Made by a program: the position numbers and the translations under genes. A stretch of DNA of 64,000 nt from Elusimicrobiota bacterium. Its GTDB lineage: Bacteria > Elusimicrobiota > Elusimicrobia > Elusimicrobiales > UBA9959. The notes beneath the pieces are model-generated. The model saw only the letters and a list, made by a program, of their open reading frames with translations. It was not told the DNA's origin and searched no databases. Positions within the stretch are counted from its first letter, which is position 1. Each line of letters begins with the position of its first letter. The stretch is taken from assembly GCA_037137395.1 (NCBI GenBank), contig JBAXKK010000003.1, positions 541 through 64,540 of the forward strand, in the 5' to 3' direction. Shown here one piece after another: positions 20,554-44,710 of the stretch.

Positions 20554-20573
20554 CCTGTACCCTACAACTGCGG

Positions 20574-29897: not shown

Positions 29898-29930
29898 CCA
29901 AAAAACAGAGCCGCCTATCAGGCGGCCCCC
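29898..29930 (-). terminator. intrinsic terminator closing the Tad operon
   Basis: Minus-strand RNA reads GCCGCC-UGAUA-GGCGGC followed by UCUGUUUUUUGG, 115 nt after the TPR gene stop. Confidence 0.75.
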
Positions 29931-30044
29931 CCACAGAAAGCGGTCACGGATAATAATCAGCCTCAAAGCTGCAGCTGCAATTTCGCGGCAAACCTACAAC
30001 CGAATCCCCCGCCCTAACTCGGTCACTAACCACTATCCACTGTC

Positions 30045-31385
30045 TTATTGCCCGCCGGCCTGATATTGCTCTATACGCTTCATACCGGCCTCGGCGTCAG
30101 AATTACCGGGATCCAATTGCTTGGCGATAGTCCACTCATCAAGGGCTTTTTCGTAGTTGGAATTTTGAAAATATTTCAAGCCTTCAAGGTAATGCTGCTG
30201 CGATGACAGCCGGTTCTCCTCAGTCGGGCCCTGGGCTTTGACGGGGCCATCCACGGAAGTTCCCTTTCGCTTGGCGTCCTCTTCCGCTTTTTTGCGCTCA
30301 GCCTCTTCATTCTTCCGCCGCTCTTCCTCATCTTTCGCGCGTTTCGCGGCCTCTTCAGAGCGGCGGCGTTTTTCTTCAGCTTCAAGGCGCATCTGTTCTC
30401 TGGCGCGGGAGATCAGCTTGTCGAGATAGGTGAGGTTTGCGGTGTAAGGCTTGGCTGTGCTCCACTCCCCTATAGCGTCGGTATATCTCCTCTCGCCGTA
30501 AAATTTTTTACCGCGCCCGATATAGCCCTGCTCTATTTCACTCTTAACCTCAGTCAGCAGCTTATTGGCTTTGGAATCGCCAGGCTGGATTTCCAGCACG
30601 CTCTTTAAACCTTCGTAAGCGTCCCGGAGCTTGCCCTGGGCGTAATATTCCAGCGCGCCCTTCAGCTTCTCGTTGGCTGACTCCTGACGAAGCTCGTCCT
30701 CAACCCTGGTAATATATTCCACGACCCTGGAATCTCTGGGCTTAATCAGCAGTGCGTTATAAAAATTATCCAGGGCCATTTTCAGGTCGCGCCTGGCGTA
30801 GAGATGAGAGCCTTTCTGAAAATAATAGTCGCGCAGGTCATCCTTCATCTTGGCCAGCCAGTATTTTGCCTTGATGTTGTTCGGGGAAAGCTTTACTACC
30901 TCTTCCATCTTCTTATGAGCGTCCAGGATCCTGCCCTCGTTGTACAGTGAGAGGGCGCTCTTAAAGCGGTCCTCCAGCATAAGTTTCTCGGATATGCCCG
31001 GGCGCAAAGAGCCGCGAAGCTGATTGGACGCCTCCAGCAGCATGCCGGCGTCCTCAAAATTGGGATCTATGGAAAGGATCTTATTCGCCAGATCGCGCGC
31101 GTCCTCGTAGTTTCCGGCGCGATAATAGTTGAAGGCGTTCTCATAAACATTCATGAGCATCTTGGATTGGATCTTAGCCTTTTCCAGCCTTATGGTCTCA
31201 ATAAAACGTTTTTTCTCCGAAAGCTCGCTCAGTGAACCCAAGCCGGTTTTCTGCAGATCAAGAAAAAGGGACTCCTCACTCTTCACCCGGGCTTTCTCCT
31301 GAGCGAAGGCGGCGGATTGGTGCAGGCACAAAAGCACGAAGGCGCAAAAACACGAGGTGACGGCATTCCTGACAAGATTTTTCAT
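30045..31385 (-). CDS. secreted TPR-repeat protein (TadD-like position) with a charged E/R/K helix
   Basis: Signal peptide; multiple TPR-like repeats (YYRAGNYEDARDLANKILSIDPN, LYNEGRILDAHKKMEEVVKLSPNN, YFQNSNYEKALDEWTIAKQLDPGN); an EAEEKRRRSEEAAKRAKDEEERRKNEEAERKKAEED segment. Confidence 0.75.
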   Translation of the reverse strand: MKNLVRNAVTSCFCAFVLLCLHQSAAFAQEKARVKSEESLFLDLQKTGLGSLSELSEKKRFIETIRLEKAKIQSKMLMNVYENAFNYYRAGNYEDARDLANKILSIDPNFEDAGMLLEASNQLRGSLRPGISEKLMLEDRFKSALSLYNEGRILDAHKKMEEVVKLSPNNIKAKYWLAKMKDDLRDYYFQKGSHLYARRDLKMALDNFYNALLIKPRDSRVVEYITRVEDELRQESANEKLKGALEYYAQGKLRDAYEGLKSVLEIQPGDSKANKLLTEVKSEIEQGYIGRGKKFYGERRYTDAIGEWSTAKPYTANLTYLDKLISRAREQMRLEAEEKRRRSEEAAKRAKDEEERRKNEEAERKKAEEDAKRKGTSVDGPVKAQGPTEENRLSSQQHYLEGLKYFQNSNYEKALDEWTIAKQLDPGNSDAEAGMKRIEQYQAGGQ

Positions 31386-31410
31386 AAAAATTTCCGCCTC
31401 TCCACTGCCG

Positions 31411-32304
31411 CTAGAACGGCATTCCGCCGGTCATCAGGTCCGCTATCATAGGCGACAGCATCAGGATGAACACGGTCGGGAAGATAAAGATAAATAAAGG
31501 GATAAGCATTTTGGTAGAGGCCTGGGCCGCGAGCTTTTCAGCTTTATTCAGACGGCGAAAGCGCATATCCGCAGAGTAGTTGCGCAGAAGCTCCACCAGG
31601 CTGGTGCCCAGCTCGTCCGACTGGATAACCAGGCCCACGAAAGAGCGCACTTCCTGCAGACCCGTCCGCATGGAAAAACGCCTGAGCGCGTCCCGCCTTG
31701 AATAACCCAGCTGAACCTCGTTAATGGTTCGCTCCACCTCAATTTCCAGGCAGGTCTTGATTGGCACGATCTTGACGATCCGGTCAAAAGCGCTCATATA
31801 ATCGAGCCCGGATTCTATCATCAGCGCGGCAAGATCAACGAAGGTCGGGAAATTATGAACGATGTCCTGCTGGCGGGCCCGTATCTTAGGGGAATAATAA
31901 AACACGTCCGGCAGCAGGAAACCAAGCGGAGCGAAGATGATTACGAAATAAGAATCTGTCAAAACATAAAAGATCACGGGCAGGGCCGCGGCCAGCATCA
32001 TCTTGATATGAAGCATCTTAAGCGGGTCGGTATGCACCGGCCGGCCCAGGAGCATATACCGCTCTTCCAGCTTTTTCTCCAGCCCCAGGCCCCTCGCGAA
32101 GAACAGGTCCAGCTTGTCCCAGAAATTTTTGCTCTCCTCCAGCTTTGAAAAAACCGAAACTTCCTTGCCCTCCATATCGCTGACGTCACCTATGGCCGAA
32201 CGCTCCTCCTCTCTGGGAGCAAAGAAGCGCTGCACGGCCGCGGCAACAGCGAAAGATCCGAAGATAGCGAGAAACACCAGAAAATATTTTGTAAAAGCAT
32301 CCAT
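31411..32304 (-). CDS. tadC: Tad pilus inner-membrane platform protein, T2SS-F family (TadC-like)
   Basis: T2SSF-like core FPTFVDLAALMIESGLDYMSAFDRIV...LLRNYSADMRFRR...; 3-4 TM segments. Confidence 0.8.
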   Translation of the reverse strand: MDAFTKYFLVFLAIFGSFAVAAAVQRFFAPREEERSAIGDVSDMEGKEVSVFSKLEESKNFWDKLDLFFARGLGLEKKLEERYMLLGRPVHTDPLKMLHIKMMLAAALPVIFYVLTDSYFVIIFAPLGFLLPDVFYYSPKIRARQQDIVHNFPTFVDLAALMIESGLDYMSAFDRIVKIVPIKTCLEIEVERTINEVQLGYSRRDALRRFSMRTGLQEVRSFVGLVIQSDELGTSLVELLRNYSADMRFRRLNKAEKLAAQASTKMLIPLFIFIFPTVFILMLSPMIADLMTGGMPF

Positions 32305-32474
32305 ATAAATCTTTCCTTAACACACCACGCGGCAATTATTTGCCATATGCCGTAAGCCATTGGCTATACGCAAAAAACAAAAGAACTTCCGGACATATCC
32401 TGGGCTTATACGCCCGACAGCGAACCAATAGCTGTGTCTAAACTTATGAGATCATAGCGCGGAGCTCTATGATC

Positions 32475-34082
32475 TTACACCTTTATCTTGCCCAGGCTTG
32501 ATACCACTTTCATACCGATGGCTATCCAGATAGCGCAGCCGACGAAAACGCCCATGCCCAGCGGGGTACTGTAAAATTTCATCATCGTGTCGGGCTGGAA
32601 AACAAACATGACGCCGACCATAACCCAGGGCATAATACCTACCACTATGGACTGGATGCGCTGCTGCGCCGTCATCGCTTTTGTCTTTTCCTCAAGTTTT
32701 GATTCCTCGCGTATATCTATAACTATGCGCTCAAAAACCTTGGTCAGGTTACCGCCCATCTGCCGCTGCAGCACTATCGCGCGGATCATATAGGAAAGCA
32801 TCTTGCTGGAAACACGATCCTCCATACCGCCAAGAGCGCGCTCAAAGGGTGTGCCCAGTTGGTAATTCTTAATAACGAGAGCAAACTCGTCTGAAATGGG
32901 TGGCAGAAGGTCCTTTGAAACCATATCGAAACCCTGCACTATATCCAGACCAGAACGCAGAGCGTTGGCTAAAAGGATCAGCGCGTCCATCAGCTGAGTG
33001 TCAATCTTGAGACCGCGCCGCAGCTTCATGGAGTTCAAAACATAGGTGGGAGTCTTAAGCCCGACAACCATCCCCAGTGCGGTCAGGACAATGAACACCG
33101 GCAGGTTGAAGCTCAACAGGCCGGCCAGCGCGAAAAGTCCGGCCGGGATAAAAACAAGATAGTGCACTTTTATATCAATAAACTGCCTGGAAAAAGCATC
33201 GCTCCACTTGTCGACTTTTGTGGAGTAGTCGGCAACCATTTTATCCGTCTTCTCCTCGTTCATCATGAAATAAAGCCTGACCGACAAGAAGACTAGCAGA
33301 ATACCCAGAACCGTGGCCGCGGTAAGGATTGCCTGTTGGGATTTGGAGGGAGTCAGAGGTGGCGAATAGGCGCGCGGCGCCCTGAAAAGCAGGCTGAAGG
33401 AGTCCTGGCTCAGGACGGAGATGGCGGCGACCGCCTCGGCGTATCGCTGCTGGTCCGCGCTTGAAATCGCATCAGATATGCTCTCCATCTCTTTTAATAT
33501 AAGATTGAAGACGGCGAGCATTGTCCGTCCGCGGCCATTCATGGAATCGTAACGCTTGGCCCGGTAAAGCCGGTCCAGAGACATCTGAAAGCGTATCCGG
33601 ATATCCGCGTATTCCTTTACAAGCAGACCCGGAGAAATCTCAACTCCCTTTTCTTCGCGCGGAAAAGTCTTTTTTGTCAGTTCCAGGAACTCATAAAGAA
33701 TGGAGACCGGCGTCTGCCAGAGTGACGCTTCAGAAATTTCACCTTCCTCAGGGTCGCGCCATACCTTATTATTAAGCATGACGGGAACGGCCGTCTCCAC
33801 CCATTTAGGCATCTTAATATTGATAGTCGCGCCTTTGCACTTGATGGGGTAATCGCTGAGCCTGGGGTCGTGTTCAGGGGCCAGATAATAATAGAAAAGC
33901 TGCATTTTGGTGGCCGCGCAGGTGACCTCAGCCATCTGATTTTTGGCCAGAACTCCCGCGTCAAGCGAGGGGACAGGGGTCAGGGTACAGGGCAGAGGGC
34001 AGAGAGCGGCAAAAACAAAAAGAACGCCAATGAAACGCTTTTTACATGGCGCGATTAGGTTTGATAATCTGAAAATATTCAT
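32475..34082 (-). CDS. tadB: TadB-like T2SS-F platform protein with ~240-aa extra N-terminal exported domain
   Basis: The C-terminal ~290 aa is T2SSF-like (LMDALILLANALRSGLDIVQGFDMV...VLQRQMGGNLTKVFERI). The N-terminal part has a signal-like segment and matches no family I recognise. Confidence 0.75.
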   Translation of the reverse strand: MNIFRLSNLIAPCKKRFIGVLFVFAALCPLPCTLTPVPSLDAGVLAKNQMAEVTCAATKMQLFYYYLAPEHDPRLSDYPIKCKGATINIKMPKWVETAVPVMLNNKVWRDPEEGEISEASLWQTPVSILYEFLELTKKTFPREEKGVEISPGLLVKEYADIRIRFQMSLDRLYRAKRYDSMNGRGRTMLAVFNLILKEMESISDAISSADQQRYAEAVAAISVLSQDSFSLLFRAPRAYSPPLTPSKSQQAILTAATVLGILLVFLSVRLYFMMNEEKTDKMVADYSTKVDKWSDAFSRQFIDIKVHYLVFIPAGLFALAGLLSFNLPVFIVLTALGMVVGLKTPTYVLNSMKLRRGLKIDTQLMDALILLANALRSGLDIVQGFDMVSKDLLPPISDEFALVIKNYQLGTPFERALGGMEDRVSSKMLSYMIRAIVLQRQMGGNLTKVFERIVIDIREESKLEEKTKAMTAQQRIQSIVVGIMPWVMVGVMFVFQPDTMMKFYSTPLGMGVFVGCAIWIAIGMKVVSSLGKIKV

Positions 34083-34112
34083 ACCAAAAGAATCCTTACA
34101 CCACCCTATATC

Positions 34113-36329
34113 CTACTTTTTGACACCGCGGGCGCGTTTTTGCTCTTCGGTCCAGAAAAGTTCCACAGGCATGTTGATGCCGTGGGTTTCGAAATCCTTG
34201 AAGAATTTGGGCGGGTCCCCGGTGGCCGAGAAATGGCCGATTACCCGGCCGGTATCTTTATCTATTCCGGTCTGGTGATATCTGTATATATCGTGCGTCG
34301 TTATCTGGTTCTCCTCACGGCCGGTAATCTCGGTGACTGCGGTGATCTTTCTGGTACCGTCGGAGAACCTGGTTAACTGCACCACCATATGTACGGCGGA
34401 AGCGATCATTTCCCGCAAAGCCCAGATAGGAAGATCGGCGCCGGCCATAAGACACATGGCTTCCATGCGGGTAAGGGCGTCGCGCGGAGTATTGGCGTGG
34501 ATGGTGGCGAGCGATCCTTCGTGACCAGTGTTCATGGCCTGCAACATATCCAAAGCCTCGGAACCGCGGACCTCTCCGACCACAATGCGGTCGGGACGCA
34601 TACGAAGGCAGTTCTTCACCAGGTCGCGTATGGTAATCTCGTTCTTGCCTTCGATGTTAGGCGGACGGCTTTCAAGGCGCACCCAGTGTTCCTGCTGCAG
34701 GCGCAACTCGGCCACGTCTTCCACGGTCACGATGCGCTCTTCTTCGGGTATATAGCTGGACAACATGTTGAGAAAAGTGGTTTTACCGGTACCGGTACCG
34801 CCCGAGATTATAATATCCTTGCGCAGCCTGACGCAGGCCTTCAGGAAATCAACGCAATCCTGCGAGATGCTGTTTTTTTTGACAAGCTCGGTATCGGTGA
34901 AAGGCTTGTTCGAAAATCTTCTTATGGTGAGCGTGGGCCCGGAAACGGCCAGCGGCGGGATAATGGCGTTGACGCGGGAACCGTCCTTAAGGCGGGCGTC
35001 CACCAGCGGCACGGATTCGTCTATGCGCCGGCCCAGGGGAGCCACGATCCTTTTCATAACCTGGACTATCTGCTCTTCGTTCCTGAACTTATATTTGGTC
35101 AGCGTCAGCTTACCGCCCCTTTCGATGAACACCCGGTCCGGGGCGTTTACCATTATTTCAGTGACGGCCGGATCCCTCATGAGCTCTTCCAGGGGACCCA
35201 GACCGAGGATCTCGTCCAGAAGCTCGTTTATAAATTTGGCGCGCTGTTCCCTGGTCAGCGGCATGGTGGCCTCTTTCTGCAGTAGGCCATTAATGATCAG
35301 ATCCACTTTTTTCCTGATCGCCTCGTTGGCGGCGGCGTTATCGTCAGTTATTTTAATGCGCTCCGTTTCAAGCGCCGAAACAACATCACGATGCATTTTC
35401 ATTTTAAGCTCATCCCAAAAATCAGGCACATCCACTCTGGCCACGGGTTGGGCGGGCTGCGGGCCGCCGGAAGCTGGCTCCGCCTCACGATCCAATTTCC
35501 GCCACAGCATATCCGAGCCATGAACAAATTCGGGGGAAGCGACGCTGGAAACCCACTGTTTCTCCACGGGATTTAGTTCCGAAAGACGGCCCATGAGCAC
35601 GCGCAGGATCTTCACCCACTGAGTGTTGGGCTGTTCCACTATAAGTATCTTGTTCTGATTCGTGTAGCCGGGCAGGGCGTCTTCCCAGGGCATGAAAGCC
35701 AAAATATCTTTATTCATCTGTTTGTAGAACTTCTCGACTTCATTGGGGCTTATGGCGCCCGGCATGTCGTAAAGATTACAAACAACCTCAAATTTGCTCA
35801 TGGGAAAATGAAGTTCGTTTATCTCCCGAAAAGTGGCTGCCGTGGCGTTGAGTGAGGAAACGTTGGAATTTGTGACCCAAAACACGATGTCCGAGATATC
35901 GAACGCGAAAACCTGCATGGGGAAATAGGGGTCGACGTCTATAAAAATATCAAAGGACTGCGAAAGCTTGGATAGTATGGGCAGAATGAGGTCCGGGGAC
36001 ATCTTGGAAACATCGGAGCGCTTCTTGGCCAGGGGCAGCACGCCCACGCCGTAAGACGAGATCGGTATCTTCCCCCTCAGCAGCGCGCCCAGGGCGCTGA
36101 CCGATTCGCGGCCCAGCGTTTTAATAATGTCGGCCATGGCCGGCGGGTTGAGGCCGAGGAGCATGGCCTGCTCCTGCCTGCACATGGGATCCAGAGGAAT
36201 AATAATAACATTCCGTTTTTGATAATTCGCCCAGGCCAGGGCCAGATTGACGCAAATGGAAGTTTTTCCCACGCCCTCTTTAGGGCCCGAAAATGTGATG
36301 ACTCGCGGCGCGGGATTAATATTTTCCAT
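34113..36329 (-). CDS. fused TadZ/CpaE-like ParA-type domain + TadA/CpaF secretion ATPase
   Basis: Residues 1-~290: MinD/ParA-like with a deviant P-loop, [21 protein letters not shown]. Residues ~300-738: CpaF-like, with Walker [15 protein letters not shown], Walker [13 protein letters not shown], and [14 protein letters not shown]. Confidence 0.88.
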
Positions 36330-36338
36330 AAAATTTAA

Positions 36339-36442
36339 GGTTACAGGTCGCAGATGACCGGTGGCAGGCGGATAACCGAAAAATGAAACTTAAAACACTT
36401 TTCACTTCGCTGCCTGTTACTTGCAACCTGCCACCTGCTACC
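36339..36442. repeat. intercistronic imperfect inverted repeat (GGTGGCAGG / CCTGCCACC words)
   Basis: ggttacaggtcgcagatgaccggtggcaggcgg ... cttcgctgcctgttacttgcaacctgccacctgctacc. Lies between the secretin and the ATPase genes. Confidence 0.65.
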
Positions 36443-37164: not shown

Positions 37165-37177
37165 AGTAATAATCTCC

Positions 37178-37250
37178 AGATTAAGGATTAAGTAGTAAGT
37201 GGTAAGGAATAAACTGCTATGCAGTTAAACCTTAATTCACTTAATCCTTA
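37178..37250. repeat. intercistronic hairpin, AAGGATTAAG family
   Basis: agattaaggattaagtagtaagtggtaaggaataaactgc-tat-gcagttaaaccttaattcacttaatcctta. Confidence 0.7.
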
Positions 37251-38003
37251 TTTTATAAGCCTTTTAAAGCTCGCTATCTCCATGGGGTGCAGCTCCACGT
37301 CTCCGAGACCCCTTACAATAATGGAAACATCTCCGACCTTCATCGAAAGTGAAAGATACTGCGCCTCGTTCGGATTAAGCGACAGGCTTATGACGCCCTT
37401 GTCGGAAAAAGCCTGATCAGCGGCCACCTGGGCTTCTTTCGCTTTAGCCTGGATAGAAGAAACGCCCTGGCCAAGGTTCGTTCCCACTCCCAACACCAGC
37501 ACATTCTGTAGAATGGTTGCGGTCACTTTTTCCTTCCGATTGTCCCCCATAGAGGCTTCAAAGGTCACAAGCACGTCTATCCTGTCGCCCGGTTTTATCA
37601 GGCGCAGCAGTTCGTTCTCCATAGGGAGGACGCAGCCCCGGTAGCCGGGCGGCACTTTAACGCTCAGGCCGGCCTCCGGACTTAAAGAGACGAGCGAAGA
37701 CAAAGTGATCTGGTTGCCCTTGGGAATCCTGACGGCAGTCACAAGATTGGATACCATCTTAATATCGGAAGCGCTTCGGATCTCCTGAGCGTCCTGCTGT
37801 ATGTACTGCCTGGGCATCTGCACAATTTCCACGAGATCTTCTTTAAGAATGGTGCGCGCCGGCAAGTCATACTTTGCGACCAGCACCTGGGCGGGCTCCT
37901 GCGCGTTGGCGATGGCCCGCTCTTTGGATGTCAGAACCCACCAGTAAATACTGGCGGCAAAAATGGCGAGAATTACCGGAACCAGGACACCTTTCTTTTC
38001 CAT
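37248..38003 (-). CDS. cpaB: Flp pilus assembly protein CpaB/RcpC
   Basis: N-terminal TM segment, SAF-like VLVAKYDLPARTILKEDLVEIVQMP, and an RcpC-like C-terminal domain. Confidence 0.8.
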   Translation of the reverse strand: MEKKGVLVPVILAIFAASIYWWVLTSKERAIANAQEPAQVLVAKYDLPARTILKEDLVEIVQMPRQYIQQDAQEIRSASDIKMVSNLVTAVRIPKGNQITLSSLVSLSPEAGLSVKVPPGYRGCVLPMENELLRLIKPGDRIDVLVTFEASMGDNRKEKVTATILQNVLVLGVGTNLGQGVSSIQAKAKEAQVAADQAFSDKGVISLSLNPNEAQYLSLSMKVGDVSIIVRGLGDVELHPMEIASFKRLIK

Positions 38004-38068
38004 GACACATTCTCCTTAGCAAATTATAGAATCCACAGATTACAGCTTTATTAAATAATTAATAAATA

Positions 38069-38139: not shown

Positions 38140-38163
38140 ACATCACCTGCTCATTGCCGCGTC

Positions 38164-38739
38164 CTACTGAAAGACCGGCTTCTCTATGGGCATCCTTACC
38201 CGCACCGTTATGTTTTTGATCCGCCGTCCCTTTGGCGGATCGGAGAAAAAATAGCTGGAGCCAGGGAAAACAAGTTTGGCCGGAAAAATCAGCGTCACCA
38301 GCAGATCCTCATTTGTGTGCGTGCTCGGATTCGCCGAAGCCTTTGGCTGCGGGTCCACGCCTGTAATCTCGCTGGTTACCACTAGTTGTATCTGGCCCGG
38401 ATCTTTAAACATCTTGGAAATCACCGATCGCATCTTGGATTCGGCCTTTCCCACATTTGAGGTGTCATCCGAACTGCCACCAGGAGGCCCGGCCACCAGC
38501 GAACCGATACGCGCCAGCTCATAGGCGCAATGATGCGCGAGGATGGTCTGGTAAGCGAGGTTCCCCAGCTCCATGATAAAAAATATCATCAGCATGAAAA
38601 CCGGCAGAACCAGAAGAAGCTCCACGGTAACCTGCCCGGCTCTTTTAATTTTCAGAGAACAAGCCACGAAACTCCGCCGGACATTAAAAACCCGGCAGAA
38701 AAACCGAAACAGTCCACACACGGACTCTTTGAAAGCCAC
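38164..38739 (-). CDS. TadE-like pseudopilin
   Basis: KRAGQVTVELLLVLPVFMLMIFFIMELGNLAY. The start is uncertain; GTG 38739 behind GGAG is preferred, and the track start is a TTG at 38763. Confidence 0.65.
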   Translation of the reverse strand: MAFKESVCGLFRFFCRVFNVRRSFVACSLKIKRAGQVTVELLLVLPVFMLMIFFIMELGNLAYQTILAHHCAYELARIGSLVAGPPGGSSDDTSNVGKAESKMRSVISKMFKDPGQIQLVVTSEITGVDPQPKASANPSTHTNEDLLVTLIFPAKLVFPGSSYFFSDPPKGRRIKNITVRVRMPIEKPVFQ

Positions 38740-38759
38740 AGGGTCTCCAATACTTAGAT

Positions 38760-38819
38760 GCAAAGCGATCCGGCAATTTAGAAGCTCATCTGAATTTCTT
38801 TACATCTAAATTGCTTTGC
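38760..38819 (-). promoter_or_regulatory. stem-loop immediately downstream of the flp gene (possible attenuator or mRNA stabiliser)
   Basis: The minus strand reads GCAAAGCAATTTAGA...TCTAAATTGCCGGATCGCTTTGC; no U-tract follows. Confidence 0.45.
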
Positions 38820-38839
38820 CTCTCGACTTGCATCTACTC

Positions 38840-39079
38840 TTACTGGTTGCCGCCGCCGGAACCAAGAGATCCGGCCGCTCCGTTAATCATGCCCTGGATC
38901 TTGGTGAATAGCGCCGGCATATAATTCTTGAGAGCCATACCTGCTATAAGCACCACGCCAACGACTACAGCCAACATCAACAGGTATTCCACGGTGTTCT
39001 GCCCTTTCCTGTTTTTTGCCGCCAGCCGGCCATAGGCCTGTGATACGATGCCAACGCACATGGTGAACAGTCTGTTCAT
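38840..39079 (-). CDS. flp: Flp-family prepilin
   Basis: NRKGQNTVEYLLMLAVVVGVVLIAG (G/XXXXEY motif); 79 aa; Gly-rich C-terminus. Confidence 0.8.
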   Translation of the reverse strand: MNRLFTMCVGIVSQAYGRLAAKNRKGQNTVEYLLMLAVVVGVVLIAGMALKNYMPALFTKIQGMINGAAGSLGSGGGNQ

Positions 39080-39128
39080 TTTGCTAGTCCTCCAGTATTA
39101 TTTATAACAATTATATCTAAATTCACAC

Positions 39129-39209
39129 GGATAAGGATTCGGCACTAAAAACTAATTTCCTCAAATCCCTATCACTTACAACTTAATCCTTAACACTTAA
39201 TCCTTATTC
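39129..39209. repeat. intercistronic imperfect inverted repeat, AAGGATT family
   Basis: ggataaggattcggcac ... cctatcacttacaacttaatccttaacacttaatccttattc. Lies between the two flp genes. Confidence 0.6.
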
Positions 39210-39431
39210 TTACCAGGGATCTTCCTGGTACATCCTGAGTATTACAACTCCGCCGCTGGTGAATTGGCTGGCCAGGTACCACTGCAATACCCTATACACC
39301 GATGCAAAGGCGACTGTAAGAGCGACCGTCACCAGAAGGTACTCTATGGCAGTCTGGCCTCTGCGAAGGGTAGAGGATTTAGTGGAAGGAGTATAGGAGA
39401 AAAAGCGCTTACAATTGAATTTACGCTTCAT
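39210..39431 (-). CDS. flp: Flp-family prepilin (divergent second copy)
   Basis: LRRGQTAIEYLLVTVALTVAFASVY; 73 aa. Confidence 0.75.
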   Translation of the reverse strand: MKRKFNCKRFFSYTPSTKSSTLRRGQTAIEYLLVTVALTVAFASVYRVLQWYLASQFTSGGVVILRMYQEDPW

Positions 39432-39471
39432 AAGTTTCCCTAACTTTATCCAATGAACCCCATACCTTCAG

Positions 39472-40479
39472 TTAGAACTGCATCTTAAGCATGATCTGGT
39501 TGGACTTTCCGAGCGCGCCATAAGGTACCATGGCGTAATCAAACGACATTCCGAAGCCCATTGCCTGCGCGCTGTATATCCCTATTCCAAAAGTCCAGCC
39601 GCTGGTCTCGCTCAGTCCCAGCGTGTCAAGCGTTTTGTCGTCGTAATTTTTACCGTAGCTGTCCGCGCGAGTATAGCCGACGCGCATGCTCACGCGGCCG
39701 ACTTGCAGCAGCTCCTCCGGAAGATTAAATTCCATCCCGACGCCGGATAGATTTTTACGATCAGAATAGGCTTTTGATTCCACCAGCGCCGTGAGAAACG
39801 AATTCAAAGAGAAAGCGATGCCGGTGCGCTGAATCTTCACAACCTGATCTGTTTTGCCTGAAAAATTAGCGCCCGACCAGCCGAACGAGAGTTTACGCCC
39901 CAGTTTCAAAACCAGGCCGGCGTCAAAAACGAGATTATTATACTTTGTGGTATAGTTGTCTTCCATCACGCTCTTGGCGCTGACGCCAAGGAGCAGCTTT
40001 TCCAGAAAAAAACTTTTAGCCAGGGTGATCGTGGCATATCCATTGCGCACTTTAACATCCTCGCCGTACTGCGGAATTCCCTCCTGGTCCCTTACATCAA
40101 ACCCTTCCATACCGTAATAGGCGACATTTACACCCACGACCGACTGCCCGATGGGGTGCACGTACGCGATGGACTGGCCGGAATAATCCTGAAACCAGCT
40201 CAGGTGTGAAAAACTCGCCTCGCGCAGCTGCGACGAAGCGACTCCCGCCGGATTTATACTCATGGCTTCCGTCCCCTCCATTATAGAGACGCCACAGTTG
40301 CCAAGCGCCTGCGCCCTGGGACTGCCGGTAGGAATCTTCATAAACACGGCGCCGGACGTTCCCGCTTTCGCGTCCGCGGCGTGAAGCAGTGCGGAAGGGT
40401 CGGAGATCAGGGCAGGGGCAAAAACAAACGCCGCCACCCAAAACATTCTTTTTAAAACCGCGCTTTTCATGGCTTTCAT
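39472..40479 (-). CDS. PorV/PorQ-family-like outer-membrane beta-barrel
   Basis: Signal peptide. N-terminal GTSGAVFMKIPTGSPRAQALGNCGVSIMEGTEAMSINPAGVA follows the PorV/PorQ-type pattern (GtsgaqFLki..gaRa.amGga......a...NPAG). Alternating beta-strand pattern ending in ...MLKMQF. Start set at ATG 40479 behind GAGAGGA. Confidence 0.65.
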   Translation of the reverse strand: MKAMKSAVLKRMFWVAAFVFAPALISDPSALLHAADAKAGTSGAVFMKIPTGSPRAQALGNCGVSIMEGTEAMSINPAGVASSQLREASFSHLSWFQDYSGQSIAYVHPIGQSVVGVNVAYYGMEGFDVRDQEGIPQYGEDVKVRNGYATITLAKSFFLEKLLLGVSAKSVMEDNYTTKYNNLVFDAGLVLKLGRKLSFGWSGANFSGKTDQVVKIQRTGIAFSLNSFLTALVESKAYSDRKNLSGVGMEFNLPEELLQVGRVSMRVGYTRADSYGKNYDDKTLDTLGLSETSGWTFGIGIYSAQAMGFGMSFDYAMVPYGALGKSNQIMLKMQF

Positions 40480-40499
40480 AAAATCCTCTCGATCTGATT

Positions 40500-40593
40500 C
40501 GTAAAGCGTGAAGCGCAAATCAGAAAGAGTCTAAAACAAATTTTTACAAAATCAAACTTATAACCCTTTACGACTTACGCTTTCCGCTTTACG
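40500..40593. repeat. intercistronic imperfect inverted repeat (CGTAAAG / CTTTACG words)
   Basis: cgtaaagcgtgaagcg ... ctttacgacttacgctttccgctttacg. Confidence 0.6.
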
Positions 40594-40597
40594 CACA

Positions 40598-43500
40598 TTA
40601 CGGTACAAGTATCTTCTTGACTGTCTGGAACGCGCCTTTCGCGCCGTCCCGGCCTTCCAGCCTGATTACCGCGAAGTACACTCCGGGAGCGACAGCATTT
40701 CCGGAGCTGTTTTTCTTATCCCATGGAATGGTTTTAACCACCGAGCCGGCCAACAGACCGGAGCTGTAACTATATACCAGGTCTCCGACCAGATTATAAA
40801 TTTTTATGGTGAGTTCGGAATTAACATATATCGGGATATGGAACCAGCCACTATTCCCCGTGTACGGATTGGGGGCGAACCAGATATCCTGCGCGAGCTG
40901 CGCGTCATCGCCGCTCGGGCCGTTTACCACCGGGATATTGTCTATTATGGAGTCTGAGGCTAATCCCGCGTTACCCGACACCGTTCCGTTAAGCATACTT
41001 ACACTCTCCGTACTGGTGGAGCCGTACACTTTAAAAACATAGTTGCCGTCCGGCACCCTTGAAAGCGTCAGGTCCGTACCGTCCCAGTACTCGGAAATCT
41101 GGGTTCTGGCCGGGCGCACCCCCACGAACATTTTTACGAGCTTGTCAGGAGGACAATTCACCGAGGGTTTCACGCATGAAGCCAGAGAAGTGCCCGGTTT
41201 ATAAATCTTAGTGACAACCGTCATCGGCTCGGAAACCTGATACGATACAATGCCGGGCGACTCAAGGGTCTGCGGCGTTATAGCCATGTCAAAGATCCTG
41301 AGCGGATCGACGTCTATTGTCTGCTGCACCGTGGCCACTGAGAGCAGTTTGTAGCCGATATCGCGGGCGACCACCCTTACGACATAACTGTTCCAGGTCA
41401 CAAAGTCGGTGTTGGGGCATGCCGGGGTATTGGTGCATCGCCCGTCCCAATAATCTCTCTGATCCATATCCCCGTCCCTGATCTCGCCGTTTATAACATC
41501 CGCGAAGACCTGCAGGTTGCCTCCGGCGGGCGGTATTCCCAGTATCTGGATCGTGACTGAAGACTGGCGGGTGAGCAGATACTCTATCTCGTAAGGCGGC
41601 AGCTTGATGGTGTCAGAAGAGTTGTACATCACGGGAATGTTGGGAATCACCTCAAAAAGCGTGAACGCAATCTGCCCCCTGGACACGTCCAGGTATCCGT
41701 AAACCCTATCCGTGGCGTACATCGCCTGAGCGGTGCCGGTGGAGCCGGCCACCAGGGTGAACGGATATCGGCCATCGGCCACCAGTTCGCCGTTATTATC
41801 GCGGCCGTCCCAGTATTCGGTTATCTTGAAGCGGCCCGGCCGCATGCCGGCCGCGCTGTAGACCGGATTGGCGGACAGACCAGACACCGGGTCGCGCACA
41901 TCCGGCGGCCAGCTGGTGTAAGGATCTATCACAATATCCGGCTCGTAAACACTAAGCGTTATAAACATCGTCTGCGACATCTCAAAACTGATATTCGCGG
42001 TATCGGAAGTTCCGCCCAAAAGCGGCGTCGTCTTGACATCTATTATGCGGAACATGTTAACGGGGGTCCTGACGGTCGTTCTGGTGAATCTGGTTGTGAT
42101 GCAGGAGGCCGGGTCCTCGGCGATTAACTCAGCCTGATAAACTCCGGCGGGGACATACTCCCCGAAGTCGTCCTTGCCATCCCAAAGTTCGCGGTTGGAA
42201 AAATTAGCGGCCCTTGTCTCGCGGTTTATAAGGTGACGGACCGGAGTCACGCTGTTGTCCGGGAAGATATTCAGCGTGAACAGAGCGTCCCGGGCCGGCG
42301 TATAGCGGAAATAAAACGGATCCAGGCCGGCCACTGACGGCGAAGACCCCATTACCGTGGAAGAAGGGGATATCAGGCTGACCACCAAGCCCCTTGCCAC
42401 AGGCAGCGCTCCGACCCAGAGGCGCTTGTTCCTTATAACACTCGCGCCCGAAGGCAGCTCAGCCCAGATGGCGTATACATATTGGCCGTCGCAGACCGGA
42501 TTGCCGTTGGCGTCGCGGCCGTCCCATATGGTCGAGACAACCTGACGCCCCGGCTGCTGCTCGGTTATCAGCCTGAGACGCGTCCCGTTGAAAGCCGGAT
42601 CGTGAGTGACGTTATTGAGATCGCTAAAAAACGTATCCGGCGTATAGATGCCGACATAAACCGTGGCGGACTCGGTGAGCATATAAGATATGACCGCCTG
42701 GTCGGTGGAGCTGGCCCCCAATGGTTTGATAGCTATATCGGTTATTTGCAGCGGATCGTGGGAAATTGTGGTGTAGTAAGTATAGGCATAGTCTATGCCT
42801 GTCCAATTATCCTGCGACTCGGCATTAATCTCGGCCCTGTAGACGCCCGGAGGGGCCATCTTGCCGGTATTGTCGCGGCCATCCCAAAAATCGCCGTTAG
42901 TCAGCGTGCCGTCAGGCGTGCCTTCTCCGACCCTTGGAATATAGTTCAACAGCTGACGCGCAAACGGCAATACGCCGCCGACATTTTCGGCCGAATATAT
43001 AGTAATAGTGGTGGTCGCGTCCTTGCTGAGCCGGTAAAGTATGTTATACGGCTGGGCCGCCACGCCCGTGATCTTTCCCACCACCGTGGGGCTCGAACGC
43101 ACCGTGTGGATATTTATGACGTCCACCTGTATAGGTATCTGGTTCTGGCCGGGGAAAGCCGCCGTCTGCTCTATAGAAATGTTTCCCACAGTCTCGCTGA
43201 CCTCGTTAGTCTTAACCTTGGCCCGGAAGCCGAATTGGCCGTTGGTCTTGCCGAAGATACCGTTTAAATTATAGGAACCGTCCCAGGCGGTACAAAAATA
43301 ATTATTAGTTCCGCCGATAGTCTGCTCCGCGGGTGCTCCTGAAGTCTGACTGCAGGTGCCGATGTCAAACATACTGACCGTTTTTATGGGCGGAGTGGAG
43401 GCCGGGTCAAGCGGATTTCCGCCGCTAGTGAATTTAAAAATTTCAAAACTCAGTTCATTAATACCGAATGTGGTGGGAGTGCTGGCGACCACGCATTTTA

Positions 43501-43759
43501 TCTTGGCGCACAGGGCCAGACAACCGCCGGGGTAACTACTCTGCGGCTTTTCATACTCTATGCGGGAAGAATTTCTCCACACGTCATTGCCGGAGGTCAC
43601 AAAAGACACCTTATTGCCGATGCCTGCGTCCTTACAATAGCCGAAGCCTCCGTCCCCCACATTTATATCGGCCACAAAAAGCTGCTGAGCGCTGGCCGCC
43701 GGAACGAAAAAAATTCCGAACAGAACGGCTGTAAGAATCAGAAATATTTTATTATTCAT
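40598..43759 (-). CDS. 1053-aa secreted protein of ~8 FlgD-Ig-like modules ending in a T9SS-type C-terminal sorting-domain-like module
   Basis: Signal peptide. A module-end motif recurs: FWDGRDNTGKMAPPGVY, IWDGRDANGNPVCDGQY, LWDGKDDFGEYVPAGVY, YWDGRDNNGELVADGRY, YWDGRCTN, YWDGTDLTLSRVPDGNY. The last ~90 aa read FAPNPYTG...LTIKIYNLVGDLVY...IPWDKKNSSGNAVAPGVYFAVIRL...KKILVP. Confidence 0.75.
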   Translation of the reverse strand: MNNKIFLILTAVLFGIFFVPAASAQQLFVADINVGDGGFGYCKDAGIGNKVSFVTSGNDVWRNSSRIEYEKPQSSYPGGCLALCAKIKCVVASTPTTFGINELSFEIFKFTSGGNPLDPASTPPIKTVSMFDIGTCSQTSGAPAEQTIGGTNNYFCTAWDGSYNLNGIFGKTNGQFGFRAKVKTNEVSETVGNISIEQTAAFPGQNQIPIQVDVINIHTVRSSPTVVGKITGVAAQPYNILYRLSKDATTTITIYSAENVGGVLPFARQLLNYIPRVGEGTPDGTLTNGDFWDGRDNTGKMAPPGVYRAEINAESQDNWTGIDYAYTYYTTISHDPLQITDIAIKPLGASSTDQAVISYMLTESATVYVGIYTPDTFFSDLNNVTHDPAFNGTRLRLITEQQPGRQVVSTIWDGRDANGNPVCDGQYVYAIWAELPSGASVIRNKRLWVGALPVARGLVVSLISPSSTVMGSSPSVAGLDPFYFRYTPARDALFTLNIFPDNSVTPVRHLINRETRAANFSNRELWDGKDDFGEYVPAGVYQAELIAEDPASCITTRFTRTTVRTPVNMFRIIDVKTTPLLGGTSDTANISFEMSQTMFITLSVYEPDIVIDPYTSWPPDVRDPVSGLSANPVYSAAGMRPGRFKITEYWDGRDNNGELVADGRYPFTLVAGSTGTAQAMYATDRVYGYLDVSRGQIAFTLFEVIPNIPVMYNSSDTIKLPPYEIEYLLTRQSSVTIQILGIPPAGGNLQVFADVINGEIRDGDMDQRDYWDGRCTNTPACPNTDFVTWNSYVVRVVARDIGYKLLSVATVQQTIDVDPLRIFDMAITPQTLESPGIVSYQVSEPMTVVTKIYKPGTSLASCVKPSVNCPPDKLVKMFVGVRPARTQISEYWDGTDLTLSRVPDGNYVFKVYGSTSTESVSMLNGTVSGNAGLASDSIIDNIPVVNGPSGDDAQLAQDIWFAPNPYTGNSGWFHIPIYVNSELTIKIYNLVGDLVYSYSSGLLAGSVVKTIPWDKKNSSGNAVAPGVYFAVIRLEGRDGAKGAFQTVKKILVP

Positions 43760-43948
43760 AAAAACCCTTGGGAGTCAAGATTCAAAAGATTCGGCACTTC
43801 GGCGCTGAAACCAAGCATTAATTTCTCAAACTTTAAGCGCGTTCCTATACCGCTTAATCCTTTCTCCATGTTAATTCTGCCATTTTGCCGATACAAAATC
43901 AATGTCATTTAAAAACCGTTAAAACCCCTGATCCGATCCGAAATAACG

Positions 43949-44710
43949 TCAATCGGTTTTCTGCTTGTTTTCCAGAGGCAAGCTTTTCCGGTCACAAAGT
44001 TCTCTCTCCCCCTTGCGCGCGGCGTCAAGGTTGAATTTAGCGACAGAAAGCCGGAACTCCAGATCAGCGGATTTTTCTTCGGCTTCCTTTATCCTTTTCC
44101 CTGAGTCAGCCCTGGCGCGCCTTTCCGCCATTAGTTCGGAAAGAGTTTTTTCCGAAGCTTCTCTGGCGGCTAAAAATTTACGTTCCATAACAACAATCGC
44201 GTCTTTCAGATTGGCTTGTTCCACAACCGATCTCGTGAATTTCTCCCGCCACTCCTCGCTCCTGACCTTAAAAACTTCCAGCCGCGCGGAGAGGTTGGCT
44301 ATCTCTATTCTGGTCCGTTCCAGAACCTCAGTCAGAAGCGCAACCTCGCGGGCATGCCTTCTCTTCTGGGCCTCCAGCATCTTTCCGGACTCTCCCAGGC
44401 TTAAAGCCGCGGACAATTCTTCACTGATGGCTTTTTCCCGCGCCTCCTGACACGACTGTTTAAGCTCGCCGAGTTGCGCGCGGGTATCGCACAGTTGGGC
44501 CGACAGGTCGCGGATGCCGGACTCTTTGACTTCCAATAAATATTTCCAATCGCTTTCGGCCTTAGAAAAATTGTTTTTGAGAAACTGAATAGTTTCAACC
44601 TGAGATTCTGAAAAACGTAAAGACGAAGCAGAAAATTCGGGGATGTAATCCTTCCCCGACGCTTTCTTCCAGAGTTCACCTAATTGTCTGTCTATTTCGC
44701 TGCTTTCCAT
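43949..44710 (-). CDS. cytoplasmic coiled-coil protein (first gene of the Tad operon)
   Basis: E/K/R/L/A-rich heptad-like sequence throughout; no TM segment or signal peptide. Confidence 0.55.
   Translation of the reverse strand: MESSEIDRQLGELWKKASGKDYIPEFSASSLRFSESQVETIQFLKNNFSKAESDWKYLLEVKESGIRDLSAQLCDTRAQLGELKQSCQEAREKAISEELSAALSLGESGKMLEAQKRRHAREVALLTEVLERTRIEIANLSARLEVFKVRSEEWREKFTRSVVEQANLKDAIVVMERKFLAAREASEKTLSELMAERRARADSGKRIKEAEEKSADLEFRLSVAKFNLDAARKGERELCDRKSLPLENKQKTD

Follow-up and report, generated by a model that had tools for sequence, protein, structure and literature searches.

The minus-strand gene run analyzed here, located within a 64-kb stretch of an Elusimicrobiota MAG (hereafter the window), is very probably the core operon of a Tad (type IVc, Flp) pilus machine in a form that is standard in a large part of the Elusimicrobiota. 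By homology, it encodes two Flp-type prepilins, TadE, the CpaB/RcpC ring protein, a secretin, a TadZA fusion, the TadB/TadC platform and a TPR protein (Table 1). The most unusual item of the locus, which was under-rated in the initial annotation, is the secretin of only 240 aa.

Organization and conservation of the locus

The twelve open reading frames, from 44710 down to 30045, were found at the positions reported in the initial annotation, with intergenic gaps of 25-189 nt. The strong intrinsic terminator described there was also recovered and consists of a 10-bp stem with 7 GC pairs (29929-29907) followed by GTTTTTTGGGG. Promoter-like matches did not exceed the frequency expected by chance, and thus no promoter can be placed. 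Structured RNA elements were found at two sites, 5' of the first gene and past the stop codon of the gene for the 79-aa prepilin. The 5' leader is composed of 7/14-nt periodic repeats (TRF rows at 44715-44804), and its predicted fold of -37.2 kcal/mol (z = -4.3) was equalled in stability by 0 of 200 shuffled sequences.

The gene order is shared by all 10 long related loci examined, which come from habitats ranging from groundwater to the human gut. The shared order comprises the giant FlgD-Ig/CTD protein, the PorV-like barrel, the Flp genes, TadE, CpaB, a secretin of 240-256 aa and TadZA, followed by the extended TadB, TadC and the TPR protein. It was established from the gene order in L001-L003, verified with Pfam in L159 (human-gut metagenome) and judged by ORF sizes alone in six of the ten loci (L144, L151, L160, L140, L117 and L157). 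On these sequence comparisons, this layout is the usual one across much of the Elusimicrobiota and no oddity of one genome. The composition had been called atypical, which holds with respect to the Aggregatibacter tad and Caulobacter cpa layouts but not within its own lineage. Profile searches supported every functional assignment to the Tad system (e.g. T2SSE 3e-63, Secretin 9.5e-43), and no description of this gene order including the PorV-like and CTD genes was found in the literature searched. Tad-like regions have been noted in Elusimicrobia before (Denise et al. 2019, PMC6668835; Stephens et al. 2022, PMC8809381); for the same phylum and kind of system, the accessible text of these papers reports presence only and contains nothing on secretin size, a TadB extension or linked CTD and barrel genes.

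Two putative regulatory genes flank the operon. The GAF-GGDEF cyclase gene is syntenic in L003, L159 and L160, precedes the giant gene in L003 and L159, and from its domains probably provides a c-di-GMP input. The HAMP protein has orthologues in L001, L003 and L004, and an ORF of ~370 aa occupies the equivalent place in L159, L144, L151 and L160. As this gene lies past the terminator and is nevertheless syntenic in every locus extending that far, it probably encodes a sensor or regulator.

Table 1. Features of the Tad locus and its surroundings (window coordinates)
Feature	Coordinates	Strand	Evidence or remark
GAF-GGDEF diguanylate cyclase, directly upstream	44922..46439	-	Pfam GGDEF 3.5e-44, GAF 6e-12
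Structured 5' leader, predicted long hairpin	44715..44810	-	ends ~8 nt before start codon of first gene
Coiled-coil protein, cytoplasmic, 253 aa	43949..44710	-	no family above cutoff
Giant FlgD-Ig/CTD protein, Sec-exported, 1053 aa	40598..43759	-	FlgD_ig 4.4e-24, CHU_C 3e-10
PorV-like barrel, outer membrane, 335 aa	39472..40479	-	ORF as called 39472-40518
Flp-like prepilin, 73 aa, RRG/QTAIEY	39210..39431	-	motif read from sequence
Flp-type prepilin, 79 aa, RKG/QNTVEY	38840..39079	-	Class_IIIsignal 27 bits (cutoff 23.7), Flp1_like 6e-5
TadE-type minor pilin (pseudopilin)	38164..38763	-	TadE 5.3e-11, 42.9 bits (cutoff 22.9)
CpaB/RcpC alignment-complex protein	37248..38003	-	TIGR03177 7.6e-27, 94.2 bits (cutoff 71)
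Secretin, core-only, 240 aa	36442..37164	-	Secretin 9.5e-43 over residues 78-240
TadZA fusion, 738 aa	34113..36329	-	CbiA 41 bits (cutoff 25.4), AAA_31, T2SSE 3e-63, TIGR03819 1e-102
TadB N-terminal extension (TadB ORF 32475-34082)	33348..34082	-	signal/anchor segment, ~190-aa helical-bundle and small-sheet domain
TadB platform core	32475..33347	-	T2SSF 3.7e-18 at residues 368-492 of 535 aa; TM helices
TadC platform protein, 297 aa	31411..32304	-	T2SSF 5.3e-16
TPR protein, exported, 446 aa	30045..31385	-	TPR families; Lys/Glu-rich coiled-coil segment
Intrinsic terminator, strong	29897..29929	-	closes operon
HAMP-domain membrane protein	28676..29815	-	HAMP 1.9e-4; beyond terminator
Second pilin cluster: 90-aa, 419-aa, 200-aa proteins	18641..20846	-	pseudopilin-type N-termini

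Pilins and assembly machinery

Both small pilin proteins contain the G/XXXXEY motif, in agreement with the two Flp prepilins annotated initially. The 79-aa protein, which is conserved in L001-L004 and is probably the major pilin, is recognized by the Class_IIIsignal profile. The 73-aa protein gave no HMM match in the profile searches and is supported by the motif of its orthologues in L001 (61% identity) and the human-gut locus L159 (KKGQTAIEY). The true start of TadE probably lies near 38739, giving 191 aa as called in a near-identical NCBI contig. The second pilin cluster, annotated as TadE/TadG/flp, carries the motifs RKGQTTVEY, RKGQILIPS and RKGQAMTEV. Its flp member stands (90-aa protein, FRKGQTTVEY, Class_IIIsignal 4.8e-5) and the 200-aa protein reached TadE at E=0.005 only, whereas the label TadG is unsupported because the 419-aa protein shows an N-terminal pseudopilin-like motif alone. 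By their N-termini, these proteins are probably minor pilins of the same Tad system.

The operon contains no tadV, rcpB, tadF or tadG, and no A24 prepilin peptidase was detected among the ~50 ORFs scanned within the window; for the peptidase, TadF and TadG this bears out the initial reading of the operon. The standard Tad model treats tadV as a gene that may be a 'loner', and Endomicrobium genomes retain pilD.

The secretin is composed of a signal peptide and a secretin domain, and its gene has its own SD sequence. Its best match in the PDB is the Tad secretin RcpA (8odn, residues 207-369), and residues 25-221 align to InvG 304-500. The alignment starts at the beginning of the InvG secretin domain and stops at RcpA 369, before the S-domain. 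The length of 240 aa is invariant in more than 100 clusters at 76-100% identity, and a 100% identical protein is present in one NCBI Elusimicrobiota MAG. In L001-L004 the secretins measure 240-264 aa, as compared to 403-730 aa in the loci of most other phyla. By sequence, this is a core-only secretin lacking both the RcpC-docking N-domain and the pilotin-binding S-domain, a form that was not found described in the literature searched. RcpA consists of a VirB9-like N-domain (28-112), a linker, the secretin core and an S-domain (378-416), and in Pseudomonas RcpC binds the RcpA N-domain in a contact that is needed for function. Since the N-domain is missing here, a contact of the Pseudomonas type is impossible. 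CpaB itself has an N-terminal TM helix (4-26), matches RcpC (2e-14), contains a SAF domain and ends in a tail, GDVE(L/M)HPMEIASF, which is conserved in paralogues.

In TadZA, a ParA/MinD/FleN-like TadZ module (residues 1-~250) with the Walker A variant KEGVGKTS is joined by a linker to a TadA/CpaF secretion ATPase, and the best structure matches of the N-terminal part are FleN and MinD. Orthologues have 735-770 aa. Homologues at 70-99% identity all belong to the Elusimicrobia, while full-length matches at 38-40% identity occur in Bdellovibrionota and Omnitrophota.

TadB, 41% identical over its full length to the L159 orthologue, has hydrophobic segments at 9-38 and 248-276. The intervening N-domain is modelled by AF2 with pLDDT >95 over residues 45-235, has 52 representatives among 1.84 billion proteins and gave no fold match below E=0.08 against the PDB. 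In the paralogues P0364, P0365, P0368 and P0370 it is fused to an RcpC domain, itself periplasmic, which suggests a periplasmic location; the N-domain is probably specific to this lineage. A confidently modelled helical TadB domain of about 200 aa was not found described in the literature searched. L004 has a 264-aa secretin alongside an ordinary 287-aa TadB, and thus the N-domain cannot be strictly required to stand in for the secretin domains that are missing. TadC is kept in all related loci and is always followed by the TPR gene. The TPR protein lacks a lipobox and scores far under the cutoffs of the PilW, Tgl and Amuc_1098 TPR families; by analogy to TadD, it is possibly an assembly factor.

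Compared with canonical Tad/Flp systems (Aggregatibacter flp-tadV-rcpCAB-tadZABCDEFG, Pseudomonas aeruginosa, Caulobacter cpa), the locus shares the Flp G/XXXXEY pilins, TadE, RcpC/CpaB, an RcpA-like secretin, a TadA/CpaF ATPase, a ParA/MinD-type TadZ, the TadB/TadC pair with one T2SSF domain each and a TPR protein in last place. It differs in the secretin without VirB9-like N-domain, linker and S-domain, in the fusion of TadZ to TadA, the extra periplasmic domain of TadB, the four genes missing from the operon, the TPR protein without lipobox and the upstream CTD and barrel genes.

Two of these traits, the fusion of TadZ with TadA and a tad locus without tadV, are already published for Bdellovibrio bacteriovorus, where TadZ, linker and TadA form one polypeptide and the tad loci contain no TadV, with PilD as the proposed enzyme for processing the pilins (bioRxiv 10.64898/2026.07.08.737194). 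The fusions align over their full length; in the Bdellovibrionota loci compared, however, the secretin measures about 500 aa and TadB about 290 aa, and neither FlgD-Ig nor PorV-like genes were detected. In Bdellovibrio, tadC is encoded apart (bioRxiv 10.64898/2026.07.08.737194). As the nearest fusions outside the Elusimicrobia are found in Bdellovibrionota and Omnitrophota, and Bdellovibrio depends on its machine to invade prey (bioRxiv 10.64898/2026.07.08.737194), the present system could serve contact-dependent attack on other cells or DNA uptake (competence) instead of adhesion; a role in DNA uptake has been proposed for the Tad-like region in Endomicrobium. We consider this quite improbable, given that neither ComEA, ComEC nor killing-associated genes were found within the window and that the linked GGDEF gene and the adhesin-like protein favour surface attachment.

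The linked surface-protein genes

The 253-aa coiled-coil protein aligns over residues 1-241 with a 579-aa ORF in L140 (51% identity), and full-length relatives measure 599 aa (L001) and 579 aa (L002). It is a truncated form of these proteins. Since it is truncated here and its gene is missing from gut-type loci, it is not a conserved core part.

The giant protein starts with a hydrophobic signal, followed by seven FlgD-Ig-like repeats of ~120 aa (WDG motifs at 159, 292, 412, 526, 650, 771 and 892) and a C-terminal T9SS-type (CHU_C-like) beta-sandwich. CHU_C scored 40.4 bits against a cutoff of 27, and TIGR04183 21.4 bits, under its cutoff of 23. The best structural match of the C-terminus is FlgD 3osv, and this domain is equally close to FlgD-Ig and T9SS CTDs. 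With orthologues of 1056-1570 aa, the family is faster-evolving and length-variable (1053-1570 aa), and the protein is a probable surface adhesin.

For the adjacent barrel, position 40479 is probably the correct start rather than 40518. Three independent weak lines, namely the family profile, Foldseek and a PDB profile search, mark it as PorV-like within the FadL/PorV/PorQ superfamily. NF033709 PorV_fam matched with 1.4e-18 (67.6 bits, under the NCBI cutoff of 90), PorQ with 1.9e-9 and UPF0164 with 8.7e-4; the top PDB match of the family profile was PorV 6h3i_F (E=0.002). The AF2 model has 14 strands at low confidence (pLDDT 57.5), with FadL (4e-7) and PorV 8gl6_F (2e-6, TM 0.55) as top Foldseek matches. 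The barrel probably anchors or shuttles the CTD protein, whose gene lies just upstream. In type IX secretion, PorV binds CTDs, PorZ is paired with PorQ, and type-B CTD proteins have a neighbouring PorP/SprF barrel gene. The present pair resembles such cargo-shuttle pairs in that a large repeat protein ending in a CHU_C-type beta-sandwich adjoins the gene for a 14-strand PorV/PorQ-family barrel, but differs in that the barrel stays under the PorV family cutoff and the two genes lie within a Tad operon.

The barrel gene lies 79 nt past the giant gene and 40 nt ahead of the first pilin gene. In all long loci seen, the pilin genes come right after these two genes, and we found no description of such a consistent tie between a CTD repeat protein, a PorV/FadL-like barrel and pilus genes in the literature searched. 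The three upstream genes might still form a separate envelope module, with the Tad operon proper beginning at the first pilin gene, as the state of the coiled-coil gene, the lack of a placeable promoter and the dispensability of such proteins in known Tad systems would allow. This is rather unlikely, because the adjacency to the pilin genes is kept down to ~40% barrel and 57% ATPase identity, the gaps are only 4-40 nt and no terminator intervenes. To judge from the spacing, the adhesin pair and the pilus genes may be transcribed together.

The same adjacency would also suit a Tad-derived secretion device, instead of or besides an adhesive pilus, in which a short Flp pseudopilus drives the FlgD-Ig/CTD protein, already folded, out through the core-only secretin in a type II-like manner and the PorV-like barrel captures the CTD and keeps the protein on the surface without a type IX system. 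The giant protein has a Sec signal and no evident outer-membrane route within the window, which contains no type IX core genes, no report of type IX secretion in Elusimicrobia was found in the literature searched, and a secretin without periplasmic domains departs from pilus-type architecture. On the other hand, type IX core genes could sit elsewhere in the genome, true pili typically show this combination of two Flp pilins and a minor-pilin cluster of its own, and adhesin genes often sit beside pilus genes, which is no sign that the products are exported by one route. We therefore give the secretion device little probability.

Proposed mode of action

As a pilus machine, the system would work as follows. 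A prepilin peptidase encoded elsewhere in the genome, none having been detected within the window, would cleave the prepilins behind the Gly of G/XXXXEY. TadZA would polymerize the prepilins on TadB/TadC, the CpaB ring would guide the pilus through the periplasm, and a multimer of the 240-aa secretin would form the exit. Without N-domain and S-domain in the secretin, the coupling between inner and outer membrane must differ. Most likely, CpaB would touch the base of the secretin directly, possibly via its conserved C-terminal tail, and the periplasmic helical domain at the N-terminus of TadB would most likely provide a second contact in this clade. The FlgD-Ig/T9SS-type-CTD protein would most likely act as surface adhesin and the PorV/FadL-like barrel as its outer-membrane anchor, the two being expressed together with the pilus so as to form a single adhesion module. 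The GAF-GGDEF cyclase encoded upstream, together with the HAMP and two-component genes downstream, would probably exert control. With its bare-core secretin and the linked surface-protein and barrel genes, the Elusimicrobiota machine would thus be built somewhat unlike the textbook form.

Gene content, setting and conservation of the operon

The twelve minus-strand genes of the operon lie at the positions proposed in the initial annotation and are separated by gaps of 25-189 nt. Every Tad function assigned there was backed by profile searches, which supports the interpretation of the locus. The strong intrinsic terminator expected at the end of the run was also recovered, as a 10-bp stem with 7 GC pairs followed by a T-run. 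In consensus scans, promoter-like and terminator-like sites were not more frequent than in shuffled sequence, and this operon-closing terminator is the only one relied on here. The remaining window contains a ribosomal-protein operon with SecY and adenylate kinase, TsaD, envelope peptidases, an RND efflux pump and sugar enzymes; the surroundings are ordinary chromosome. Across the whole window, neither Rfam searches at gathering thresholds nor a tRNA scan gave a match; specifically, the pilin genes are not preceded by a c-di-GMP riboswitch.

Positions and profile matches of the features discussed in the text
Feature	Position (strand)	Length	Sequence features and profile matches
Twelve-gene operon	30045-44710 (-)		
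Leader hairpin	44715-44810 (-)		
Coiled-coil protein	43949-44710 (-)	253 aa	
FlgD-Ig/CTD protein	40598-43759 (-)	1053 aa	FlgD_ig 4e-24; CHU_C 40.4 bits (cutoff 27); TIGR04183 21.4 bits (cutoff 23)
PorV-like barrel	39472-40479 (-)	335 aa	NF033709 1.4e-18, 67.6 bits (cutoff 90)
Flp-type prepilin	(-)	79 aa	RKGQNTVEY; Class_IIIsignal 27 bits (cutoff 23.7); Flp1_like below cutoff
Predicted hairpin after the 79-aa pilin gene	38670-38845 (-)		
Flp-like prepilin	(-)	73 aa	RRGQTAIEY; no profile match
TadE-type pseudopilin	(-)		TadE 42.9 bits (cutoff 22.9), 5e-11
CpaB/RcpC alignment protein	(-)		TIGR03177 94.2 bits (cutoff 71)
Secretin	36442-37164 (-)	240 aa	secretin domain 146 bits, 9.5e-43
TadZA	34113-36329 (-)	738 aa	CbiA/AAA_31 P-loop module at residues 9-240 (CbiA 41 bits, cutoff 25.4, at 11-222); T2SSE at 376-657, 3.1e-63; TIGR03819 1e-102, 343.8 bits (cutoff 373)
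TadB	(-)	535 aa	T2SSF at residues 368-492, 3.7e-18, above cutoff
TadC	(-)	297 aa	T2SSF 5.3e-16, above cutoff
TPR protein	(-)		
Terminator	29929-29907 (-)		
Exported protein among regulators	25152-26852 (-)	566 aa	no Pfam/NCBIfam family
Second cluster	18641-20846 (-)	90, 419 and 200 aa	90 aa: FRKGQTTVEY, Class_IIIsignal 4.8e-5; 200 aa: TadE E=0.005
Heptanucleotide repeat in second Flp-like gene	20772-20799		(CTATGGC)x4, perfect
Low-complexity membrane-anchored protein	17133-18443 (-)	436 aa	no Pfam/NCBIfam family
Intergenic heptanucleotide repeat	15616-15671		(TTACGGC)x8, perfect
Small ORF	~12899-13102 (-)	67 aa	
14-nt periodic repeats	5566-5602, 10668-10738, 47819-47853		

As in canonical Tad systems, the locus encodes a TadA ATPase, a TadB/TadC pair with a single T2SSF domain each, an Flp prepilin, TadZ, RcpC/CpaB and TadE. 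In contrast to them, its secretin is not of the RcpA type, which carries a periplasmic N-domain as well as an S-domain for binding the pilotin. The dedicated TadV/CpaA peptidase, which in canonical systems may lie apart, had already been reported as missing from the operon, and no Peptidase_A24 match was obtained among the approximately 50 ORFs scanned across the 64-kb window. The G/XXXXEY processing motif is present in both small proteins of the operon, and within the operon there are no TadF/TadG minor pilins. Directly behind the stop of the gene for the 79-aa pilin, a long hairpin followed by a short GC stem and a U-run is predicted (z = -3.4); it overlaps the TadE ORF at its 5' end, the position of which is uncertain, and could attenuate read-through into the machinery genes. 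An exported TPR protein comes after tadC. Its matches to PilW, Tgl and Amuc_1098 are weak and its signal peptide has no lipobox; the S-domain, the usual partner of TadD, is missing from the secretin.

The TadE/TadG/flp cluster suggested downstream of the two-component regulator block was upheld in part. Its 90-aa protein is Flp-like and the 200-aa protein matches TadE weakly, whereas the label TadG for the 419-aa protein is without profile support, since this protein shows only a pseudopilin-like N-terminus. The Flp-like gene carries a perfect fourfold heptanucleotide repeat on the coding strand of its 5' leader-coding part. The TadE-like gene for the 200-aa protein has a two-copy version in the corresponding position, and both genes share the leader MQ(I/M)KLS..SLKH..YGLW. 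An eightfold repeat of another heptanucleotide is located 80-135 nt upstream of a 779-aa coiled-coil gene. As seven is not a multiple of three, these repeats are candidate slipped-strand phase-variation switches; alternatively, they could be repeated regulator sites. Their copy numbers are identical in the contigs compared, which all come from the same sample as one another. The 67-aa ORF directly downstream of the 779-aa coiled-coil gene has a precomputed Pfam match to the flagellar protein FlbD in a near-identical NCBI contig (L167, 9175-9378), suggesting that flagellar genes start beside the minor-pilin cluster. The minor-pilin cluster also includes a conserved 436-aa protein with a Cys-rich C-terminus, and a conserved 566-aa exported protein with orthologues in the related loci L001 and L003 is encoded among the regulators.

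TadZ and TadA are joined in one reading frame of TadZ module, linker and TadA, the same arrangement as the 'atypical TadZA fusion' of Bdellovibrio bacteriovorus described in a 2026 preprint (bioRxiv 10.64898/2026.07.08.737194). In the TadA part a Walker motif can be read, and the score against the TadA family TIGR03819 is slightly below its cutoff. FleN and MinD are the closest structures to the TadZ module, and the receiver-like N-terminal domain of canonical TadZ is absent from the protein layout. An exact-sequence look-up with the window protein gave no match; homologues at 70-99% identity number in the hundreds, the named ones all being from Elusimicrobia. Among the loci compared, those of Bdellovibrionota and Omnitrophota contain true single-ORF fusions of 716-754 aa, collinear over residues ~4-728 at 38-40% identity, whereas in Firmicutes, Actinomycetota and Chloroflexota loci TadZ and TadA are mostly separate adjacent genes. 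A WOR-3 locus (L010) was rejected as a TadZA fusion, its match being confined to residues 271-725. In a near-identical NCBI contig (L081, 11001-13052), the ATPase is annotated from a start 55 codons later (683 aa), removing the TadZ P-loop (residues 14-23). The 738-aa start was retained because orthologues are 735-770 aa long.

The same preprint describes tad loci without TadV and proposes PilD as the processing enzyme, and in the standard Tad model tadV need not be part of the locus. Thus, neither the TadZA fusion nor the missing peptidase is new. For the phylum itself, Stephens et al. (PMC8809381) mention that Endomicrobium, E. proavitum and E. minutum have a large Tad-like region, with pilD kept elsewhere in those genomes.

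The secretin is 100% identical to one in the NCBI Elusimicrobiota MAG GCA_005795845.1. In three Elusimicrobial species genomes, with ATPase identities of 82, 57 and 57%, the order is FlgD-Ig protein, PorV-like barrel, flp, TadE, CpaB, secretin (240-254 aa), TadZA (738-768 aa), TadB (521-561 aa) and TadC; the TPR protein, a HAMP protein and regulators come next where the contig extends. Furthermore, a metagenome scan seeded with the PorV-like family yielded 80 loci, of which seven long ones were inspected by hand. The gene series was confirmed gene by gene with Pfam in one human-gut metagenome locus, and the six others show the same series as judged by ORF-size pattern. Thus, the layout is the norm of the lineage and not an accident of one genome, the coiled-coil first gene being the exception. 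This Tad system is common in its phylum.

The core-only secretin and the TadB extension

The 240-aa secretin comes with a signal peptide and a ribosome-binding site of its own. Among solved structures it is closest to the Tad secretin RcpA, and the aligned part is limited to RcpA residues 207-369. Against InvG and MxiD, the match starts at residue 25 of the secretin and at residue ~303-304 of the targets, where the secretin domain of those structures starts. [quoted passage not shown] As the alignment spans the secretin domain alone, the mature Elusimicrobial protein consists of nothing but the core. The full length of 240 aa hardly varies across more than 100 sequence clusters at 76-100% identity, whereas TadA-adjacent secretins in most loci of other phyla have 403-730 aa. 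The literature search returned nothing relevant on natural minimal secretins, and the core-only secretin is a previously undescribed feature. It matters because in Pseudomonas the RcpC ring docks to the RcpA N-domain and function needs that contact; a bare secretin conflicts with the current model of Tad machine alignment.

The second departure concerns TadB, whose N-terminal extension, likewise previously undescribed, comprises a signal/anchor segment, a domain of about 190 aa and an extra transmembrane helix. When 1.84 billion representative proteins were searched in full with HMMER, just 52 matched this N-domain. AlphaFold models residues 45-235 as a helical bundle with a small sheet (pLDDT above 95). 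Foldseek against the PDB gave no match below E=0.08, and generic four-helix bundles (for example PsbQ and FAT domains, E>=0.085) were rejected as homologues. The N-domain also occurs in proteins of about 345 aa, in which it comes after a signal peptide and is joined to an RcpC domain (44% identity to the RcpC domain of the window's CpaB, E=2e-28); their genes adjoin another RcpC gene and a TPR gene. Since RcpC is periplasmic according to the Pseudomonas work, the TadB N-domain almost certainly serves the alignment complex as an accessory in the periplasm.

In separate small loci (L085, 407-2006; L086, 531-2130; L084, 59-1735), an RcpC-only protein of 165-174 aa precedes the fusion of N-domain and RcpC. 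A further gene lies downstream of the fusion in L085 and L086, and is a Pfam-confirmed TPR gene in L085 only. Such loci may represent a second module of the alignment complex in part of the Elusimicrobia.

In the related locus L004, a 264-aa secretin stands beside an ordinary 287-aa TadB, with no other candidate ORF. The proposal that the TadB N-domain is an obligatory substitute for the missing secretin domains is weakened by this locus; N-domain and short secretin are not strictly coupled.

The FlgD-Ig protein and the PorV-like barrel

The FlgD-Ig protein combines a Sec signal with seven repeats, which are marked by WDG motifs and spaced at about 120 aa, and ends in a beta-sandwich. Like type IX cargo, it carries a C-terminal sorting domain, recognized here by the type B profile CHU_C; with the type A profile TIGR04183 it scores slightly under the cutoff. 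The domain is equally FlgD-Ig-like. It evolves faster than its neighbours and varies between 1053 and 1570 aa, as is often the case for surface proteins. The barrel protein matches the NCBI PorV/PorQ family NF033709 below its cutoff, its family profile finds PorV as the top PDB match (E=0.002), and an AF2 model built from closer homologues has 14 strands at low confidence (pLDDT 57.5), with FadL and PorV as best Foldseek matches. By these three independent tests, each weak alone, the barrel is tentatively considered PorV-like.

The two genes are 79 nt apart, and 40 nt separate the barrel gene from the first pilin gene; in relatives, the corresponding gaps are a few nucleotides only. That these upstream genes work independently of the Tad operon is, next to such spacing and a gene order kept across the lineage, unlikely. 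In the 64-kb window, no type IX translocon or motor component (SprA, PorKLMN, PorU) was found. Export of the FlgD-Ig protein by the pilus machine in a type-II-like manner is an alternative that we consider very unlikely. Nothing relevant was found in the literature on a link between PorV and Tad, and the linkage of a CTD protein and a PorV-like barrel to pilus genes is a previously undescribed feature.

The first gene of the operon corresponds to residues 1-241 of a coiled-coil protein that has 579-599 aa in relatives (L140, 4768-6507; L001, 1242-3041), and about 0.9 kb of the gene appears to have been deleted in the lineage of the window. The gene is missing from gut-type loci. In the window, the 5' leader of this gene forms a long hairpin (-37 kcal/mol, z = -4.3), which stops 8 nt short of the ATG and is made of purine-rich TAAGGATTAAG-type repeats pairing with a pyrimidine-rich copy. 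The hairpin has no Rfam match, and related 14-nt periodic repeats are found in three other intergenic regions.

Proposed mechanism and implications

From the observed and conserved set of parts, we infer the following route. The pilins would be cut by a prepilin peptidase encoded elsewhere and polymerized on TadB/TadC, powered by TadZA. CpaB would form the periplasmic conduit and the core-only secretin the pore, coupled by direct contact between CpaB and secretin and, in the clade of the window, additionally by the new TadB domain. The FlgD-Ig protein would act as an adhesin that the PorV-like barrel keeps in place and that is expressed together with the pilus. Regulation would probably involve c-di-GMP, given by an upstream GAF-GGDEF gene, together with the downstream HAMP and two-component genes. 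A role of the machine in DNA uptake or contact-dependent attack, rather than in adhesion, appears improbable to us.

In its most far-reaching form, the proposal would be that the envelope-spanning section of a type IV filament machine was rebuilt in Elusimicrobiota. The resulting machine would combine a natural bare-core secretin of 220 residues, inner-membrane coupling by a novel periplasmic helical domain (on TadB or an RcpC paralogue) instead of secretin N-domains, and use with a CTD/PorV-like pair for placing a large Ig-repeat adhesin at the surface, no type IX system being involved. Taken as a whole, we regard this as unlikely.

Structural models of Tad machines currently rest on Pseudomonas, where the secretin is held at its N-domain by the RcpC ring and at its S-domain by the TadD pilotin. 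As a whole phylum that includes human-gut members keeps a highly conserved Tad locus with a secretin devoid of both domains, at least one other route of pore alignment and assembly must exist. The periplasmic domain of TadB/RcpC and the conserved CpaB tail are concrete candidate coupling elements. With about 220 mature residues, the protein would rank among the smallest natural secretins and, as a minimal model, would lend itself well to work on how secretins assemble and gate. Furthermore, with CTD protein and PorV-like barrel constantly paired, it may be asked whether docking between CTD and barrel is also used outside type IX secretion. Elusimicrobium minutum is cultivable, so that the questions of alternative alignment, minimal secretin and CTD-barrel docking can be tested in this phylum.
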